Of a DNA stretch of 64,000 nt, positions 2,466 through 10,192 are shown piece by piece. Position numbers and translations under genes: made by a program. The notes under the pieces are model-generated. The model worked only from the letters and a program-made list of their open reading frames with translations. It was not told where the DNA came from and searched no databases. Within the stretch, counting starts at the first letter, position 1. Each line of letters opens with the position of its first letter. Origin of the DNA: Candidatus Latescibacterota bacterium. GTDB taxonomy: Bacteria > Latescibacterota > UBA2968. The DNA lies in NCBI GenBank assembly GCA_965204375.1, contig OZ241986.1, forward strand, positions 3,872,001 through 3,936,000, given 5' to 3'.

Positions 2466-3548
2466 TCACTCGCGATACAGCTTCGCCACTGCAATCGCAT
2501 CCTCTTCCCAACAGGTATAAAACAAATACAACTGACCATCTTCTTTGAACGCATAAGAATCATGCACCACATCCCCCTCCCAATCCTCCTCGGCGCGGAT
2601 CATATCTTCGGGGGGATAACTCGTCTGCCACGCCTGCCAATCGCCCGCGCTCAAATCCACAGTCGAACGCATAATATATTCTGGCTCCTCCCATTTCCGG
2701 CTGTAAAACACCTCCAGCGTCTCGCCATCCTCCATCACCCGCACAGACCCGTGGCGCAGACCCAAACCCCCATTGGGAAGATGATCGCCAGCCAGCCCAT
2801 CGGCGACGAGATCATCTTCAATAGGCGACGACTCAGCAGACACCCACAGAGGATCGCTCGAATTCCAACCCTCTGGCGCATCCCACAGAAATGCGGAATT
2901 AGCTGGCTTCAAAAAAAATCCGCGCTGTGCAAAACCGTACCAATCGCCATCATAGGTAAACACCCGCAGATAATTTCGATCTGCAAATTTCAACCGCTTC
3001 AATCCATGGCCTTCTTCGCCACCCACCTCGGGACGGTTAAAATTCAACCCGGACTTCGACGTCGCCACAAATGAACGCTGGCCATCATTGCTGCTCCCGT
3101 GAACCACCATGATAAAATGCCGGTTATCCTCATCCACAATCACCTCGGGAGACGACACATGCCCCTTTAACACAATCCCATCCACCACATCAATCGTCTC
3201 AATCGAATTGCCCAGCCGCAAATCAAACACCCCGCGCCCTGGAAAACGCGGATCATCCAACCTGCCAGCATTAAAAAGCGTCCAATCCGCCGAATCCACC
3301 CGATCTGACCACGCCATGTGAATACTCGTCCCGTGATGCGACGCACAATAGAGATAATAATTCGCATCCGGATGTGCCCGGTCTTCCGCAGACACCCAGT
3401 CGGGTATCCGAACCACCGCGGGAAACATCGCATCGCCGCGCAACCTCGACCGATTGGGATCCGCCCCAATCCTGAGTCGCCGCACATCACTACCATCGAC
3501 AATTGGCCTACCGTGTAATTTCTCAACCCGATAAGTTACTTCACTCAT
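2466..3548 (-). CDS. Hypothetical protein, probable glycoside-hydrolase-like beta-propeller
   Basis: [28 protein letters not shown] (Asp-box-like), [16 protein letters not shown] blades. Confidence 0.55.
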
Positions 3549-5347: not shown

Positions 5348-5896
5348 TCACACTTCGTCGCGCTCGTCCAAAAAATCCATAATTGCCGGTGTGGCGACCT
5401 CAATAAAACGCCTGAGCGTATCCGCCAGAGCGTTGGCGAACTCATCGTTCAGTGTATTACTACCAAAATTAACCGCGACTCGTCCCCATCTATTACGCTG
5501 TCTTAGTCTTTGGTCTTCGTGGATATCCAGATTATTCACAAAACTTTTCAATGACTTGCTTTTACCATCAGAAAGACCGCCGATTTGCCCGTATTTGTTC
5601 TCGCCATATCTGATTGCAACGAGTGCATTGCTACAGGATGCCGTCTTAGATGGATCGTCGAATGTCATTTCGATTTCATAGCACAGGGCCCGCCAGTTTT
5701 CCCATGGCCGCTCTGAATACCATAAGTGATAGCAGAGGGGTTTTTTGCCCTCTTCCTCTATGCCAAAGGGAGCCATGCCATTATTACCTTTGCTATTCTT
5801 ATCTGGTCGTTTGATTTCGTCAGGCAAACCATCTTTTGCCAGATCGCTAACTTCTTCGAAAAAGCATAGAACGTTCTTGCGTAACCTCTCATTCAT
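5348..5896 (-). CDS. Hypothetical protein
   Basis: 182-aa ORF with AAGGG RBS-like motif, co-oriented with neighbours; no family recognised. Confidence 0.6.
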   Translation of the reverse strand: MNERLRKNVLCFFEEVSDLAKDGLPDEIKRPDKNSKGNNGMAPFGIEEEGKKPLCYHLWYSERPWENWRALCYEIEMTFDDPSKTASCSNALVAIRYGENKYGQIGGLSDGKSKSLKSFVNNLDIHEDQRLRQRNRWGRVAVNFGSNTLNDEFANALADTLRRFIEVATPAIMDFLDERDEV

Positions 5897-5980: not shown

Positions 5981-6370
5981 TCAATTTCGCTCACAAATAT
6001 GCTCTCTCAACCATTCGACAAGTTGCTCGCGGGAAACTTTTCCTGATGCGAGGCCCAAAATGATTTGTTCTTGAATATCTACGGTAGCATCAATTCTATA
6101 TCCATTAGAACGCAAGAATACTGCCATTGCAGCATGCCCCACCCGTTTATTTCCATCCACAAAGGGGTGATTCCCAATCAAAGAAAAACACAAGGCTGCC
6201 GCCTTTTCTATAACGGTAGGATAGAGATCCTGTCCCCCAAACGTCATAAGGGGTTGTGCGATAGCCGATTCCAGTCCACCAGGATCGCGTATCCCCGCAG
6301 ATCCGCCACTTGTTTGAATAATATGATTGTGAAGTGCTAATATTTGATCTAAATTGATATGATTCATCAA
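5981..6370 (-). CDS. doc: Death-on-curing (Doc/Fic) family toxin
   Basis: HPFVDGNKRVG Fic/Doc motif; GIRDPGGLESAIAQP..TFGGQDLYP. Confidence 0.93.
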   Translation of the reverse strand: MMNHINLDQILALHNHIIQTSGGSAGIRDPGGLESAIAQPLMTFGGQDLYPTVIEKAAALCFSLIGNHPFVDGNKRVGHAAMAVFLRSNGYRIDATVDIQEQIILGLASGKVSREQLVEWLREHICERN

Positions 6371-7494
6371 CTTAGCCTTTTGTATAGTTCGCTATTTTCC
6401 TTGAGTACCTGTTCACAGATATCCTTAAATCTCTGTTTCTCAAAAAATTTAACAGGATCATCAAAACTCTGTCCTCGAAATACACCGTTTTTAAAAAAAT
6501 TAATGGTATCATCTTTTATCTGACAATACGATCCAAGACCACCTGCCCTGAAACCCAAATGATGACCAATGACAATGCGTATGATCTCGGGGACTACGGC
6601 AGCAACTATGTTAAAGGTATATCTTTTGGACTGCTCATTATCAAGTCCTTTTAGCTCTGGTATCCGACCAGTGTGCGTCAGGACATTACGCACCCGATCA
6701 ACATATCGAACCCGGGTCTCTTGTTCAGGTACTGGCGACGAATCTATAATCTCAAGTGATTGCAGGAGCGAAAATAATTTATCTAATAAAGATGGGCCAC
6801 GATCAATCTGACCACTTAGCAAATTTTTATACCGTTCCACTTGGTCTGGTTGAAGTCCTTTTGTTTTTGTAAGGACATCGCTTATCTCATTTTTAAGTTT
6901 CTTACGGATAGGCTTGCTGACCTTTTCATAGGCCATCTCATGCTGGTCGAGAACAATGTTGAGTGCCGTGCAGTAAGAAGCCGCGCGTAATTGCAGGATA
7001 TTGGTGTTCATTGCCTGATTGTATAACAGCAAAGCAAAATGCAAATTTTTCGATACTAAGGATTCCCTATTTTGCCAGGCAAGTGCTGCTGCACGCAAGG
7101 TCTCAATTTGAGCCACAGCATAATCACCATATCCATCTGGGCGAACCCTCTCACGGTATTCTTCTGTTGCTACGTTTCTACCCGTCAAAAAAGTGAGCAA
7201 ATTGCATAAATCCCACAGTCCTCCATCGTCGGCTACCCTGTCGAGAAGAATACTCTTTTCTCCAGCCCCTTCCCAAGACACAGTTGCCGTGGCATGCCAG
7301 GTACCTGTTTTTGCCGACGAGCGTTGTAGTCCTGTTTCATCGAGAGTCAACATTGGAGGTTGAGGCAGTTGAGAAACCTTATCATTGTAATCATCTGTGA
7401 GACGCACCTTAAGACAGCCGATACTGCTCTCTGACCATGGGGGGCCGGGACGTGAATCGCCCATATAGAGATTGAAGAGGTCAATTGTTTTCAT
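6367..7494 (-). CDS. HEPN-type (ApeA-like) protein with C-terminal Doc-antitoxin-like tail
   Basis: RNVLTH (Rx4H) at 6673-6690 in a helical region; C-terminus FKDICEQVLKENSELYKRLS; stop overlaps doc start (TGATG). Confidence 0.6.
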   Translation of the reverse strand: MKTIDLFNLYMGDSRPGPPWSESSIGCLKVRLTDDYNDKVSQLPQPPMLTLDETGLQRSSAKTGTWHATATVSWEGAGEKSILLDRVADDGGLWDLCNLLTFLTGRNVATEEYRERVRPDGYGDYAVAQIETLRAAALAWQNRESLVSKNLHFALLLYNQAMNTNILQLRAASYCTALNIVLDQHEMAYEKVSKPIRKKLKNEISDVLTKTKGLQPDQVERYKNLLSGQIDRGPSLLDKLFSLLQSLEIIDSSPVPEQETRVRYVDRVRNVLTHTGRIPELKGLDNEQSKRYTFNIVAAVVPEIIRIVIGHHLGFRAGGLGSYCQIKDDTINFFKNGVFRGQSFDDPVKFFEKQRFKDICEQVLKENSELYKRLS

Positions 7495-7559
7495 ATTTAT
7501 TCCCTCTGGATTACTGGCGTCATGCTGGCGCGTGGCGGCTTACACCCTGCCGCAATGAC

Positions 7560-7583
7560 GGGCGAGGCATGCCTCGCCCCTAC
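7560..7583. repeat. GTAG-family REP-like palindrome
   Basis: GGGCGAGGCATGCCTCGCCC palindrome followed by CTAC (GTAG on minus strand). Confidence 0.6.
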
Positions 7584-7631: not shown

Positions 7632-8429
7632 CTACAGATTGTCAACAGCATAAACAGCTTTCTCTATCTGTTCCTCTCCGACGGTTTTGACATTAGCATC
7701 AGAACCGAGCAACAGGGCCACATCGCAAATATTATTTATATCTCGCGGAACACCATTGGACGCTTGATAGAGCGCGTCGAGCGCGTCCTCGTCGAACAGG
7801 GATCGATCGGCTCCCGCTTTTTCCAGACGTGTTTGCACATAAGACAGGGTTTCTTCGCGCTTGAGCGGTGCGAGGTGATATTGCCGTGCGACCTGTTGTC
7901 CCAATGCCCCAACGCCCGCGATCCGACCCACGAGACCTGCCTGTCCAACGAGAAGAAGGGTAAGAAAAAAACGCCCATTGCGTTGAAAGCTGAACAGAGA
8001 TTGCAACGCTTCAAATGTATTGTCGTCTTCTATTGCATGGGCATCATCGACAATGACGACCGTATATTTGCCCGCATTGGCACTTTTGACAGCCTGAACC
8101 TCAAGTGCGCGTTGCAATTTTCCGTTCGATTGGTCCTCAACGCCCAATTGCCCGAGCATATCCCGCAGAAAGTCTTCCGGCGAAAGACCAGGTCTATCCA
8201 TAAGTGCGATCTTATACCTGTCGGATGACAGTTCCTGGATGAGCATGCGACTCACAACGGTTTTGCCACAGCCCGTGTCGCCCGTGAGCACGGCAGCCCC
8301 CATGCGGTTATTGATCGCGTAAAACATTTGCAACAATGCCCTCTGGTGATCTCTCGAAGAATAAAAAAAACGCGGATCCGGCACATTTTCAAACGGCAAT
8401 TCTGTCAGATTCCAATATTTATCGTACAC
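7632..8429 (-). CDS. ExeA/GspA-like AAA ATPase
   Basis: PF..VPDPRFFY N-terminus, Walker A GDTGCGKT, Walker B VIVDDAH, GVPRDINNICD. Confidence 0.9.
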   Translation of the reverse strand: MYDKYWNLTELPFENVPDPRFFYSSRDHQRALLQMFYAINNRMGAAVLTGDTGCGKTVVSRMLIQELSSDRYKIALMDRPGLSPEDFLRDMLGQLGVEDQSNGKLQRALEVQAVKSANAGKYTVVIVDDAHAIEDDNTFEALQSLFSFQRNGRFFLTLLLVGQAGLVGRIAGVGALGQQVARQYHLAPLKREETLSYVQTRLEKAGADRSLFDEDALDALYQASNGVPRDINNICDVALLLGSDANVKTVGEEQIEKAVYAVDNL

Positions 8430-8695
8430 GGTCTCAATCCCTTATTTTAAGTCCGACCATAGATCTTATAAACCTATCGGAATAGTGGTTTAACACTACT
8501 TTTTATCGCAATTCAATATAGTTATCTCAAACGGTCTGTGTCAAGTAATCGGCAAAGCGATTTAAGTGTTTCCCGGCGTTTTATACAACGCGGAGACATT
8601 GACACAAAATACTTTGACGGAACGTATCCAAACCCTATATTTTGCTGCACTGCACTGGTGACACATCTATTTTGACTTTCATTTTGGAGATCTGT

Positions 8696-10192
8696 ATGGC
8701 CTGGTGGCAATCCGTTTTGCTGGCCACTTACAGCCTCGTGTTTGCATTGCTGATGCTCGTAAGCCTGCATCGACACTTGATGGTACACCTTTACTATAAG
8801 CACCGTCGCAAACAGCCCATTCCCCGCGGCACCTTTGATGAATTACCCTTTGTGACAGTGCAATTGCCCATATTTAATGAACGCTATGTGGTCGAGCGAC
8901 TAATTCGCGCCGTCGCCAAAATGGATTATCCAACCGACCGTCTCGAAATTCAGGTTTTAGACGACTCGACCGATGAAACAACCGCAATTGCCAGGCAGTG
9001 CGTTGATGAACTTCGACATTCGGGACTGAATATCGCGCTGATACACCGCAAAACGCGCACCGGGTATAAAGCCGGTGCGCTCGCAGAGGGATTGCGGGTT
9101 GCACGCGGTGAATTGATCGCAATTTTTGACGCCGATTTTCTGCCGCCACCAGACTTTTTGAACAAAACCATTCCGTATTTCGTCGAACCGCAGGTCGGCA
9201 TGGTTCAGACGCGCTGGGGGCATCTGAATCGGGATTACTCCATTTTGACACGCGTACAGGCCATCTATCTCGACGGCCATTTTGTTATGGAACACGGTGC
9301 CCGAAGCCGCTCGGGCTTGTTTTTCAATTTTAACGGCACAGCAGGTGTCTGGCGTCGGGCTTGTATCGACGAAGCCGGTGGCTGGCAGCACGATACCCTG
9401 ACCGAAGACCTCGACTTGAGCTATCGCGCGCAATTGGCGGGCTGGCAATTTGTCTATCTCGCAGATACCGTAACGCCGGCCGAAATCCCCGTGGAAGTAA
9501 ATGCCTGGAAATCACAGCAATTTCGGTGGGCAAAAGGCTCTGTTCAAACCGCAAAAAAAACACTGAAGACCCTGTTGCAAAGTCATCTTCCATGGCGCGT
9601 AAAGGGCGAAGCCGCTTTTCATCTGGTAACCAATTTTGCATATTGTTTGATGGCAATGATCGCCATTCTCATTTTTCCCGCGATTGTTCTGCGGGAAGAC
9701 CTGGGATGGCTCAGGGTATTGATAATCGACTTTCCCCTCTTTGTAGGCGCAACAGGTGTGATCTCGAGATACTACATCCACTCGCAGCGAGAAATATATT
9801 CGGATTGGAAATCGCGCATCCTGTATTTGCCATTTGTACTCGCCCTGGGCATGGGGATTTCATTGAACAACGCGCGCGGAGTGATTCAAGCTCTGCGAGG
9901 GCACGAGACCGCATTTAATCGCACCCCTAAATACCGCGTTATCGGCAGGAATGGAAATTGGTATCGCAAAAATTACGCCCTGAAAAAAAATATAACTGCA
10001 TTTTTGGAAATTGGACTCGGTCTTTATTTGCTGGGCGCCATGGCGTATTCGATTGCGAAAGGGCTGTATTTCCCCGTACCATTCCTGATTTTGTTTGCCG
10101 CTGGTTTTTTTTATGTGGGGGGAATGTCTTTATTCCAGGGCATTTGGGCAAAAATACATTCGCAAGCAATTGAAGTCGCAGAAGCAAACTAA
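8696..10192 (+). CDS. GT2 processive glycosyltransferase (cellulose synthase-like, CslA-type)
   Basis: QLPIFNE, DDSTD, YKAGAL, FDADF, TED, QQFRW motifs plus TM helices; start trimmed to MAWW. Confidence 0.92.
   Translation: MAWWQSVLLATYSLVFALLMLVSLHRHLMVHLYYKHRRKQPIPRGTFDELPFVTVQLPIFNERYVVERLIRAVAKMDYPTDRLEIQVLDDSTDETTAIARQCVDELRHSGLNIALIHRKTRTGYKAGALAEGLRVARGELIAIFDADFLPPPDFLNKTIPYFVEPQVGMVQTRWGHLNRDYSILTRVQAIYLDGHFVMEHGARSRSGLFFNFNGTAGVWRRACIDEAGGWQHDTLTEDLDLSYRAQLAGWQFVYLADTVTPAEIPVEVNAWKSQQFRWAKGSVQTAKKTLKTLLQSHLPWRVKGEAAFHLVTNFAYCLMAMIAILIFPAIVLREDLGWLRVLIIDFPLFVGATGVISRYYIHSQREIYSDWKSRILYLPFVLALGMGISLNNARGVIQALRGHETAFNRTPKYRVIGRNGNWYRKNYALKKNITAFLEIGLGLYLLGAMAYSIAKGLYFPVPFLILFAAGFFYVGGMSLFQGIWAKIHSQAIEVAEAN

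Follow-up and report, generated by a model that had tools for sequence, protein, structure and literature searches.

A HEPN-family protein with a Doc-antitoxin-like tail as the probable antidote of a Doc toxin in Latescibacterota

In a 64,000-nucleotide (nt) stretch of DNA from a Candidatus Latescibacterota bacterium (contig OZ241986.1, positions 3,872,001 to 3,936,000; the window, in whose own numbering positions are given), the gene of a Doc toxin directly follows that of a 375-amino-acid (aa) protein of a HEPN family, the last 22 residues of which resemble the end of a Doc antitoxin. By analogy with characterised modules it is highly probable that Doc is neutralised by this tail and has the 375-aa protein as its antitoxin. 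The pair would then be a two-gene toxin-antitoxin-like module in which the antidote is a HEPN-family protein and not a small DNA-binding protein. The explanation as a whole, which also takes in the origin of the module, its mechanism and its likely function, is in our judgement moderately probable.

Both genes lie on the minus strand. The gene of the 375-aa protein occupies 6367..7494 and doc occupies 5981..6367 (stop 5981-5983), giving 128 aa from the ATG at 6367. The TGA of the first gene (6369-6367) and the ATG of doc (6367-6365) share one base, 6367 (...AGTTGATGAAT...); an in-frame TTG at 6370, one codon upstream, is an alternative start of doc, with which the open reading frames (ORFs) overlap by 4 nt (doc open frame 5981..6370). 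The upstream protein contains an Rx4H motif, RNVLTH, at residues 269-274 (6673..6690) and ends ...FKDICEQVLKENSELYKRLS. In these respects the locus is as described in an earlier sequence-only reading of the DNA, which had also seen no separate small antitoxin gene before doc. Indeed, the sole small ORF that ends there, of 46 aa (6372..6512), is an alternative frame within the 375-aa gene; it was rejected as a hidden antitoxin, being absent or cut to 7 aa in three of 11 orthologous loci and variable in length in the others. The HEPN-tail gene thus stands where the antitoxin gene of a type II Doc module stands, directly upstream of doc and with overlapping stop and start. What type II antitoxins have besides, a small size and an operon-repressing N-terminal DNA-binding domain, was not found, RHH, AbrB and YefM domains being absent from the 375-aa protein. 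A promoter and terminator scan was uninformative (six promoter-like sites against 5.8 expected, none of them in the gap before the HEPN gene).

The tail (residues 354-375, QRFKDICEQVLKENSELYKRLS; 6370..6435, minus strand) is homologous to the C terminus of ribbon-helix-helix (RHH) type Doc antitoxins and would be the Doc-neutralising element. When the family of the 375-aa protein was compared with 13 RHH antitoxins by hhalign, only the last 22 columns of each aligned (probability 95.2%, E = 2.5e-8, 50% identity), that is residues 354-375 of the former and the last 22 residues of the latter. At the DNA level, similarity between HEPN-tail and RHH loci begins at the codon of F356 and extends through the common junction with its overlap (AGTTGATG). 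Judged by this homology, the protein appears to possess the C-terminal neutralising segment of a type II antitoxin, and the likeness of its tail to a Doc-antitoxin C terminus, first proposed by eye, is upheld by the profile comparison. The ...VLxxNxELYxRLA ending named in that proposal for small antitoxins upstream of doc was also recovered, as ...VLKKNRELYRRLS at 18 Latescibacterota loci, ...YVLRKNAELYKRLA on a Nostoc plasmid and ...RVLEKNRELYRRLA in Gemmatirosa.

The small antitoxins that share this ending are of the RHH type. Within the phylum those upstream of doc are 63-75 aa long and end ...AAEHVLKKNRELYRRLS or similar (18 of the 30 best loci); Pfam RHH_1 is matched by six of the 13 used for comparison, and against the PDB their profile matched CopG repressors with its N-terminal part only. 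The best plasmid match of the window's Doc, 64.5% identical, is from Nostoc, where a CopG/RHH protein of 65 aa that ends ...QSASYVLRKNAELYKRLA precedes it; the next best, from Gemmatirosa (51.6%), is preceded by an RHH-like ORF ending ...AAGRVLEKNRELYRRLA. The antitoxins of more distant Docs, on plasmids of Deinococcus, Treponema, Acetobacter, Alicyclobacillus, Alkaliphilus and Azospirillum, show a loose likeness to the motif or none. Compared with the RHH (CopG)/Doc modules of Nostoc PCC 7120 (plasmid epsilon) and of the 18 Latescibacterota loci, the present pair has an orthologous Doc (57-71% identical within the phylum), a homologous end of the upstream protein (...VL.KN.ELY.RLS/A) and the same stop/start overlap, whereas the RHH DNA-binding domain of about 40 residues is replaced by a 353-residue HEPN-family body. 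Operator binding, and with it the usual autoregulation, cannot be the same as in RHH/Doc.

No large carrier of the tail outside the HEPN family was encountered. A search with the tail of P0053 in proteins of 200-639 aa, its sensitivity limited to shared 5-residue words, gave 14 candidates, all of the HEPN family, and a search in short proteins (30-205 aa) gave two fragments of this family only. Even within the family the tail is narrowly distributed: in a search of family representatives the alignment reaches residue 375 in the two nearest clusters only and stops by about residue 356 in all others, and members without a tail end ...W.LE..F.EWFY. In the AlphaFold2 monomer model the tail forms the last helix (residues 347-374) at a pLDDT of 74-82.

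Antitoxins are modular and consist of a short neutralising element and an exchangeable carrier; the known carriers are DNA-binding domains and, more recently, Panacea. Phd is degraded by ClpXP, and in the P1 Phd-Doc structure, which is said to show fold complementation, the Phd C terminus reportedly lies on Doc. The Docs of phage P1 and Salmonella belong to the same toxin family as the one described here (P1 Doc, E = 8e-11), and in Phd/Doc a C-terminal helical antitoxin peptide suffices, as a 23-mer Phd peptide alone is reported to inhibit the Salmonella Doc (PMC9207808). The hydrophobic spacing of the tail (F356, I359, C360, V363, L370) resembles that of the Phd hot spots F56, I59, M60, H63, L67 and L70 when the two are compared by eye rather than with an alignment tool; unlike the 375-aa protein, Phd begins with a domain of the YefM type. 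The closest precedent is known from Corynebacterium doosanense, the PanA(Phd-C):Doc pair described in the work on NetFlax, in which a Phd-C element placed on Panacea or even on SUMO neutralises Doc, and for which a sensory role of the carrier was proposed (PMC10440598). There, as would be the case here, a Doc-neutralising C-terminal element sits on a carrier that is globular and lacks DNA binding. The carriers differ: there it is a Panacea domain, here a protein of the HEPN RNase type, which is otherwise met as effector or toxin. HEPN systems lie outside the NetFlax network by the caveat of that paper itself (PMC10440598).

By its family, the product of 5981-6367 is a Fic/Doc toxin. It matches Pfam PF02661 (E = 4.8e-22, 79 bits, curated cut-off 24), NCBIfam TIGR01550 (E = 9.3e-18, 64.6 bits, cut-off 38.65) and the PHROGs family phrog_577, 'Doc-like toxin' (2e-37), and in the PDB it matches by sequence P1 Doc and another solved Doc (1e-9 to 1e-12). 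The Doc-type active-site motif is HxFx(D/N)(A/G)NKR, and HPFVDGNKR at H67-R75 (6143..6169, minus strand) is presumably the Doc-type variant of the Fic motif. H67, P68, F69, G72, N73, K74 and R75, and likewise N66, are invariant in 21 of 21 aligned Docs; D71 is nearly invariant and V70 variable. This is the sole small Doc in its genome, where eight other Fic-domain matches sit in open frames of 300-567 aa. Outside the window the same genome (G000) holds at C1:1095676-1095828 (L080:1077-1226) a 50-residue C-terminal fragment of a second doc, 64% identical and with a stop within the match; no remnant of an RHH antitoxin was detected beside it. Among the PADLOC candidate defence models the window's Doc matches PDC-S23 (9.4e-17) and, over almost the full length, PDC-M59B (5.7e-14), which means that candidate anti-phage systems with Doc-like components have been listed before.

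How the tail came to the HEPN protein can be read from the 168 Latescibacterota genomes sampled, 75 of which contain a match to Doc at E <= 1e-10. At the 30 best Doc loci the upstream partner is the HEPN-tail gene in 11 cases, an RHH antitoxin in 18 and a broken (frameshifted) RHH antitoxin in one, and the 4-nt overlap with doc is kept in 29 of the 30, including all 11 HEPN loci. The 11 HEPN-paired Docs come together in a single clade of the Doc tree (bootstrap/SH-aLRT 100/99), which is nested among RHH-paired Docs and has as its sister (92/77) an RHH-paired clade from the same genus. Because of this nesting in a single clade, the exchange of the RHH for the HEPN domain is concluded, on these sequences, to have happened once. 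The tree of the HEPN family, calculated from body columns only, likewise unites the 17 tail-bearing members among 78 in one clade (SH-aLRT 97). The data show that an ordinary Doc antitoxin of a Latescibacterota ancestor exchanged its RHH N-terminal domain, on one occasion, for the entire body of a stand-alone ApeA-like HEPN protein; all that was retained were its last 22 or so residues and the overlap with the start of doc. The broken antitoxin (L079, G049:C31) loses its frame after ...RLGIP and stops 27 nt short of the open doc frame; the G049 genome has three Doc matches and another antitoxin may cover this Doc.

The HEPN family occurs in 13 of the 168 genomes, nine of the 21 of the window's genus (its own genome included) and four of the 31 of one genus in another family, and nowhere else in the phylum; the tail is confined to these two genera. 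The neighbours of the pair are an AAA_22 ATPase, a family 2 glycosyltransferase (GT2) and a TonB-like gene in the window's genus; in the second genus the pair lies between leuB/isopropylmalate-synthase-like genes and argJ. Since the contexts differ, the HEPN-tail gene and doc have moved together, as one unit of two genes. In the window's genus, seven genomes have an RHH-Doc, elsewhere in the chromosome, and lack a HEPN gene; no genome in the genus was found with both RHH-Doc and HEPN-tail-Doc.

Tail and toxin have also stayed together. Of the 14 loci with a tail, 13 in genomes and one (L032) in a metagenome, 12 have an intact doc immediately after the HEPN-tail gene, so that the possibility left open by the sequence-only reading, that HEPN homologues never carry the tail or doc, can be set aside. 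In one of the remaining genomes (G084; loci L005 and L082) the HEPN-tail gene is intact, but of doc only the first few codons (MMDYLTEV...) are left, behind which lies a 502-aa ORF resembling a DNA methyltransferase; a search of the rest of this genome at E <= 1e-10 gave no Doc. In G087, from the window's genus, the module has decayed (L081, C1:1735500-1739500): of the HEPN gene only residues 225-375 are left, with an in-gene stop and with RNALTH and the tail still present, and doc has internal deletions and has lost its catalytic motif. Conversely, no doc was found behind tail-less relatives with a visible C terminus, neither at three genome loci nor at 15 metagenome loci, several of them duplicates of one another, and no Doc of the HEPN-paired clade was found without a HEPN-tail gene. 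The latter is as expected if the upstream protein is the antidote.

It could be argued that addiction is all that holds the two genes together. The tail would then neutralise Doc, nothing would be signalled, and loss or truncation of the HEPN gene would free Doc and kill the cell, so that a defence or RNase gene would be selfishly 'locked in' with no guard function at all. The mobility of the two-gene unit between the AAA_22 ATPase/GT2 and the leuB/IPMS-like-argJ context suits this view, as does the pattern of decay, in which doc was lost first (G084) or both genes were (G087) and Doc was never left alone. So do the contigs of relatives, which break directly after the doc stop (5977/5978), and surroundings of tail-bearing loci in which neither phage nor defence islands are seen. 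A plain RHH-Doc adjoining a HEPN gene would, however, give nearly the same linkage, and addiction leaves unexplained why the swap was fixed and retained for so long, in proteins that have diverged to as little as 59% identity, with an invariant catalytic motif. Moreover, genomes of the same genus have either RHH-Doc or HEPN-tail-Doc and never both, which looks like one working module replacing another. Addiction alone is a possible but rather unlikely account.

The HEPN-tail gene and doc are both under purifying selection. Among 11 loci the pairwise ratio of nonsynonymous to synonymous substitution (dN/dS) was 0.28 for the N terminus, 0.28 for the HEPN domain, 0.21 for the tail (49 of 55 pairs usable) and 0.22 for doc, the short linker having three usable pairs only. 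Majority identity is 0.78 in the tail as in the body. These values bear on the view that the tail is a leftover of a gene-joining recombination that no longer binds Doc, Doc itself being inactive or otherwise controlled. Persistence of the tail in G084 without doc fits such a vestige, and the doc fragment elsewhere in the window's own genome shows that these genes do decay here. Against it, the dN/dS of the tail is as low as that of doc and lower than that of the body, and the tail equals the body in majority identity; the active-site residues of Doc are invariant in 21 of 21 sequences and the 4-nt overlap is kept in 11 of 11 HEPN loci. We consider a vestige very improbable. The related suggestion of the earlier reading, an accidental in-frame capture or one-off fusion, does not agree with a single origin followed by retention in 13 of 168 genomes and one metagenome contig, purifying selection and an association with doc that is broken only where doc itself has decayed.

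Contigs from metatranscriptomes of close relatives (85-99% alike) bridge the HEPN/doc junction in four of four libraries from three studies, and in three libraries they diverge from the window directly after the doc stop (5977/5978). The bridging contigs count as weak support, since contigs cannot prove a single transcript and DNA may contaminate RNA libraries. Relatives of the module of the same similarity (85-99%) are present in coral and sponge metagenome and metatranscriptome libraries (X4-X17), which beyond X5 and X10 are unverified small shares.

The body that carries the tail belongs to a family of 91 homologous clusters in a large protein collection (138 representatives at 50% identity, nearly all of 330-390 aa and typically about 360-380 aa long). 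In an alignment of 78 members only four columns are invariant, G105, R269, N270 and H274, three of which belong to the Rx4H motif of the HEPN superfamily, R269-N-V-L-T-H274, the putative catalytic site; Asn in this motif is typical of HEPN sites. The AlphaFold2 model (pLDDT 94.6, pTM 0.89) predicts a beta-rich N terminus, an all-helical region and the last helix described above. Residues 1-127 (7114..7494, minus strand) are modelled with strands up to residue 74 and then two helices. N8, G26, W66, T69, A70, D95, G105 and R106 are conserved in this part across the family; no fold match covering it was obtained with Foldseek or VIA-align, and it is possibly a sensor. Residues 128-346 (6457..7113, minus strand) form the helical, HEPN-like domain (domain model pLDDT 90.7). 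When this domain model was compared by VIA-align with 48,161 chains, the first eight places were all taken by HEPN proteins, with Z values that lie beneath the caution line of 8: Csm6 (8jbc, 6.8), HepT (8xdj and 5yep, 6.6), 2hsb (6.4), 3mfn (6.3), 7ae2 (6.3), 4nqf (6.1) and AbiA (8oz7, 5.9). The eight comprise Csm6, three HepT toxins, AF_0298, Dfer_2879, 4nqf and AbiA. With the whole model, Cas13b, Cas13bt3 and Csm6 were among the best rows. Pfam HEPN_Apea (PF18739) is matched by eight of the 78 family members (best 5.9e-6) and two other HEPN families by one member each. Because structural matches, the invariant Rx4H motif and the Pfam matches of relatives come together, the body is taken as a HEPN domain, an assignment that draws on sequence and model alike.

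The sequence-only reading had spoken of a HEPN-type nuclease and had named ApeA/HEPN as a match to look for; the HEPN type is supported for the reasons just given, membership of ApeA is not. The window's protein has no match to PF18739 at E <= 1 and none to PADLOC models, and its architecture differs: of its 375 aa, the N-terminal part makes up about 127. ApeA, a single-gene anti-phage defence protein, has about 600 aa with an N-terminal domain of about 300 aa, and its minimal homologue has 467 aa, as given in PMC3710099 and the ApeA preprint. Both families have one HEPN domain with an RNxxxH motif, an N-terminal domain ahead of it and stand-alone genes near restriction-modification (RM) genes; the present family is shorter, at 360-380 aa. 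Among its tail-less members the neighbours include an Mrr-type endonuclease, MmeI-type RM, AbiEii with DUF6577 and a C5 methylase, Abi_C, GIY-YIG, and TrwC relaxase with ArdC. The ancestral body looks like a self-contained HEPN protein of defence islands and not like a toxin of a toxin-antitoxin system in need of an antidote.

From these elements a mechanism can be proposed. The 22 residues of the tail would form a helix that lies on Doc and blocks it, much as in the analogous modules. Since HEPN domains act as dimers, the complex would probably be a Doc-(HEPN)2-Doc assembly in which a HEPN dimer stands in for that of the RHH domains. Loss of the DNA-binding domain would also have cost the operon its usual transcriptional autoregulation. 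The HEPN body would keep an activity of its own, with a sensor N terminus and the Rx4H RNase site, and whether Doc is free would therefore depend on what becomes of a defence-type protein or on its conformation: were the HEPN protein lost, degraded or remodelled, Doc would be freed and would shut down translation. This last part, an active body and a release of Doc coupled to the state of the HEPN protein, is offered tentatively. It is tempting to go one step further, in the direction of the guard module proposed in the sequence-only reading, and to see a defence sensor that holds a second weapon on an antitoxin leash. The N terminus would sense infection, the HEPN domain would cut RNA and the tail would sequester the Doc kinase; attack of a phage on the HEPN protein, or a dimer changed by activation, would free Doc, which would phosphorylate EF-Tu, and the infection would be aborted. 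In this full form the proposal is doubtful.

Several observations weigh against the proposed mechanism or parts of it. The tail helix of the model may pack on the body instead of being free. The tail and the RHH-antitoxin profile found no match to Phd in the PDB; the neutralising role of the RHH C terminus is itself assigned by analogy. G084 keeps an intact tail without doc, which may reflect recent loss or another role of the tail. The HEPN assignment is made on modest scores (Z 5.9-6.8, with the caution line at 8), and Foldseek against the PDB gave nothing at E <= 0.001 with either the whole or the domain model. In sequence searches the best hits of the 375-aa protein to Pfam and NCBIfam (E = 0.12 and 0.069) were at chance level and far below curated cut-offs, PADLOC gave no match, PHROGs none at E <= 0.01 and a PDB search with the family profile found nothing; 28 of 30 neighbours in the ESM Atlas were unnamed clusters, and one carried a MauJ label at 49%. 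Tail-less relatives stand alone, with no conserved partner or antitoxin-like neighbour, and for this reason the body is probably self-controlled as ApeA is and neither a second nor a constitutive toxin of a toxin-antitoxin pair, which weakens the earlier 'two-toxin' wording. Finally, the tail-bearing module lies among housekeeping genes with no visible link to phage, and no relatives were found in viral contigs by a scan resting on one peptide pattern.

The direction of control might also be the reverse, with Doc as regulator and the HEPN RNase as effector. Doc sitting on the tail, or phosphorylating or NMPylating the HEPN protein, would keep the RNase off, as MntA does by AMPylating HepT. HEPN RNases are commonly restrained by a modifying partner enzyme, according to the HepT/MntA literature, and Fic/Doc enzymes are reported to modify proteins (PMC3710099, PMC10440598); the conservation of both tail and HEPN site would also suit such a pair. 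The Doc clade, however, falls within the ordinary RHH-Doc toxins and its active-site motif is unchanged, and tail-less HEPN relatives work without any Doc. The intact HEPN-tail gene of G084, which lacks Doc, should furthermore be lethal if Doc were the sole brake. Reverse control appears very improbable. In HepT/MntA, whose HepT structures the domain model matches (8xdj, 5yep, 7ae2; Z 6.3-6.6, again under the caution line), the HEPN protein is described as the toxin and is neutralised by AMPylation, whereas here it is in the position of the antitoxin.

If the 375-aa protein is the antidote, as we think, the pair is by its sequence a type II Doc module in which the carrier of the antitoxin element is a HEPN defence-type protein. 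HEPN and Doc have been seen together before: Anantharaman et al. 2013 describe RloC/PrrC-type HEPN genes near DOC toxins and RM genes and read this as multi-level defence (PMC3710099). A HEPN RNase and a Doc-family toxin are encoded together there too; those are separate genes without a shared antitoxin element, and their HEPN domain is fused to an ABC ATPase, whereas here the HEPN protein itself bears the Doc-antitoxin segment. The literature searched, which did not extend to subscription journals, contains no report of a HEPN protein with a Doc-antitoxin element. The carrier here would be a HEPN RNase-type protein from a family that otherwise stands alone beside restriction and abortive-infection genes. 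One phylum preserves the donor (RHH-Doc), the recipient (the stand-alone HEPN protein) and the product, which makes a dated single-event example of how a toxin is rewired to new sensors. It raises the questions whether a defence-type protein controls Doc and whether operon autoregulation is dispensable. Should the coupling be functional, two weapons directed at translation, an RNase and an EF-Tu kinase, would be linked in one complex. Should the leash exist as outlined, it would be the first case in which a defence effector has an antitoxin function of its own, and a natural experiment in which a linear element of 22 residues sufficed to connect a toxin with a new sensor. The pair is easily testable and of relevance to the fields of toxin-antitoxin systems and phage defence.

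The genes around the pair do not appear to belong to it. The AAA_22 ATPase upstream (7632-8429, minus strand) was considered as a third component and rejected, since it is syntenic in one genus only and leuB/IPMS-like genes take its place in the other. It resembles the XrtA/PEP-CTERM-associated ATPase TIGR03015 (E = 2.3e-54, 184.6 bits, cut-off 324.5). Divergent from it, at 8642-10192 on the plus strand, lies the gene of a 516-aa GT2-like membrane glycosyltransferase, and these two genes are syntenic in several genomes of the genus. Downstream, a 182-aa ORF (5348-5896, minus strand) follows doc on the same strand after 84 nt. It was rejected as a part of the module, as a homologue was seen only in the relative L002, within a longer ORF, and as the contigs of relatives no longer follow the window immediately beyond the doc stop; it has no match in Pfam, NCBIfam, PADLOC or PHROGs.

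The gap between the ATPase and HEPN genes contains an 18-nt perfect palindrome, GGCGAGGCATGCCTCGCC, at 7561-7578 (within 7535-7583), of which the genome has 25 copies (reversed control, 0). In contigs from RNA libraries this spot has by far the greatest depth and many loose ends. It looks like a dispersed element of the REP (repetitive extragenic palindromic) type. In L002 the same gap is longer by about 950 bp and includes, at 3232-3399, a weak second fragment of the HEPN family, 34% identical over 73 residues that correspond to residues 157-229.

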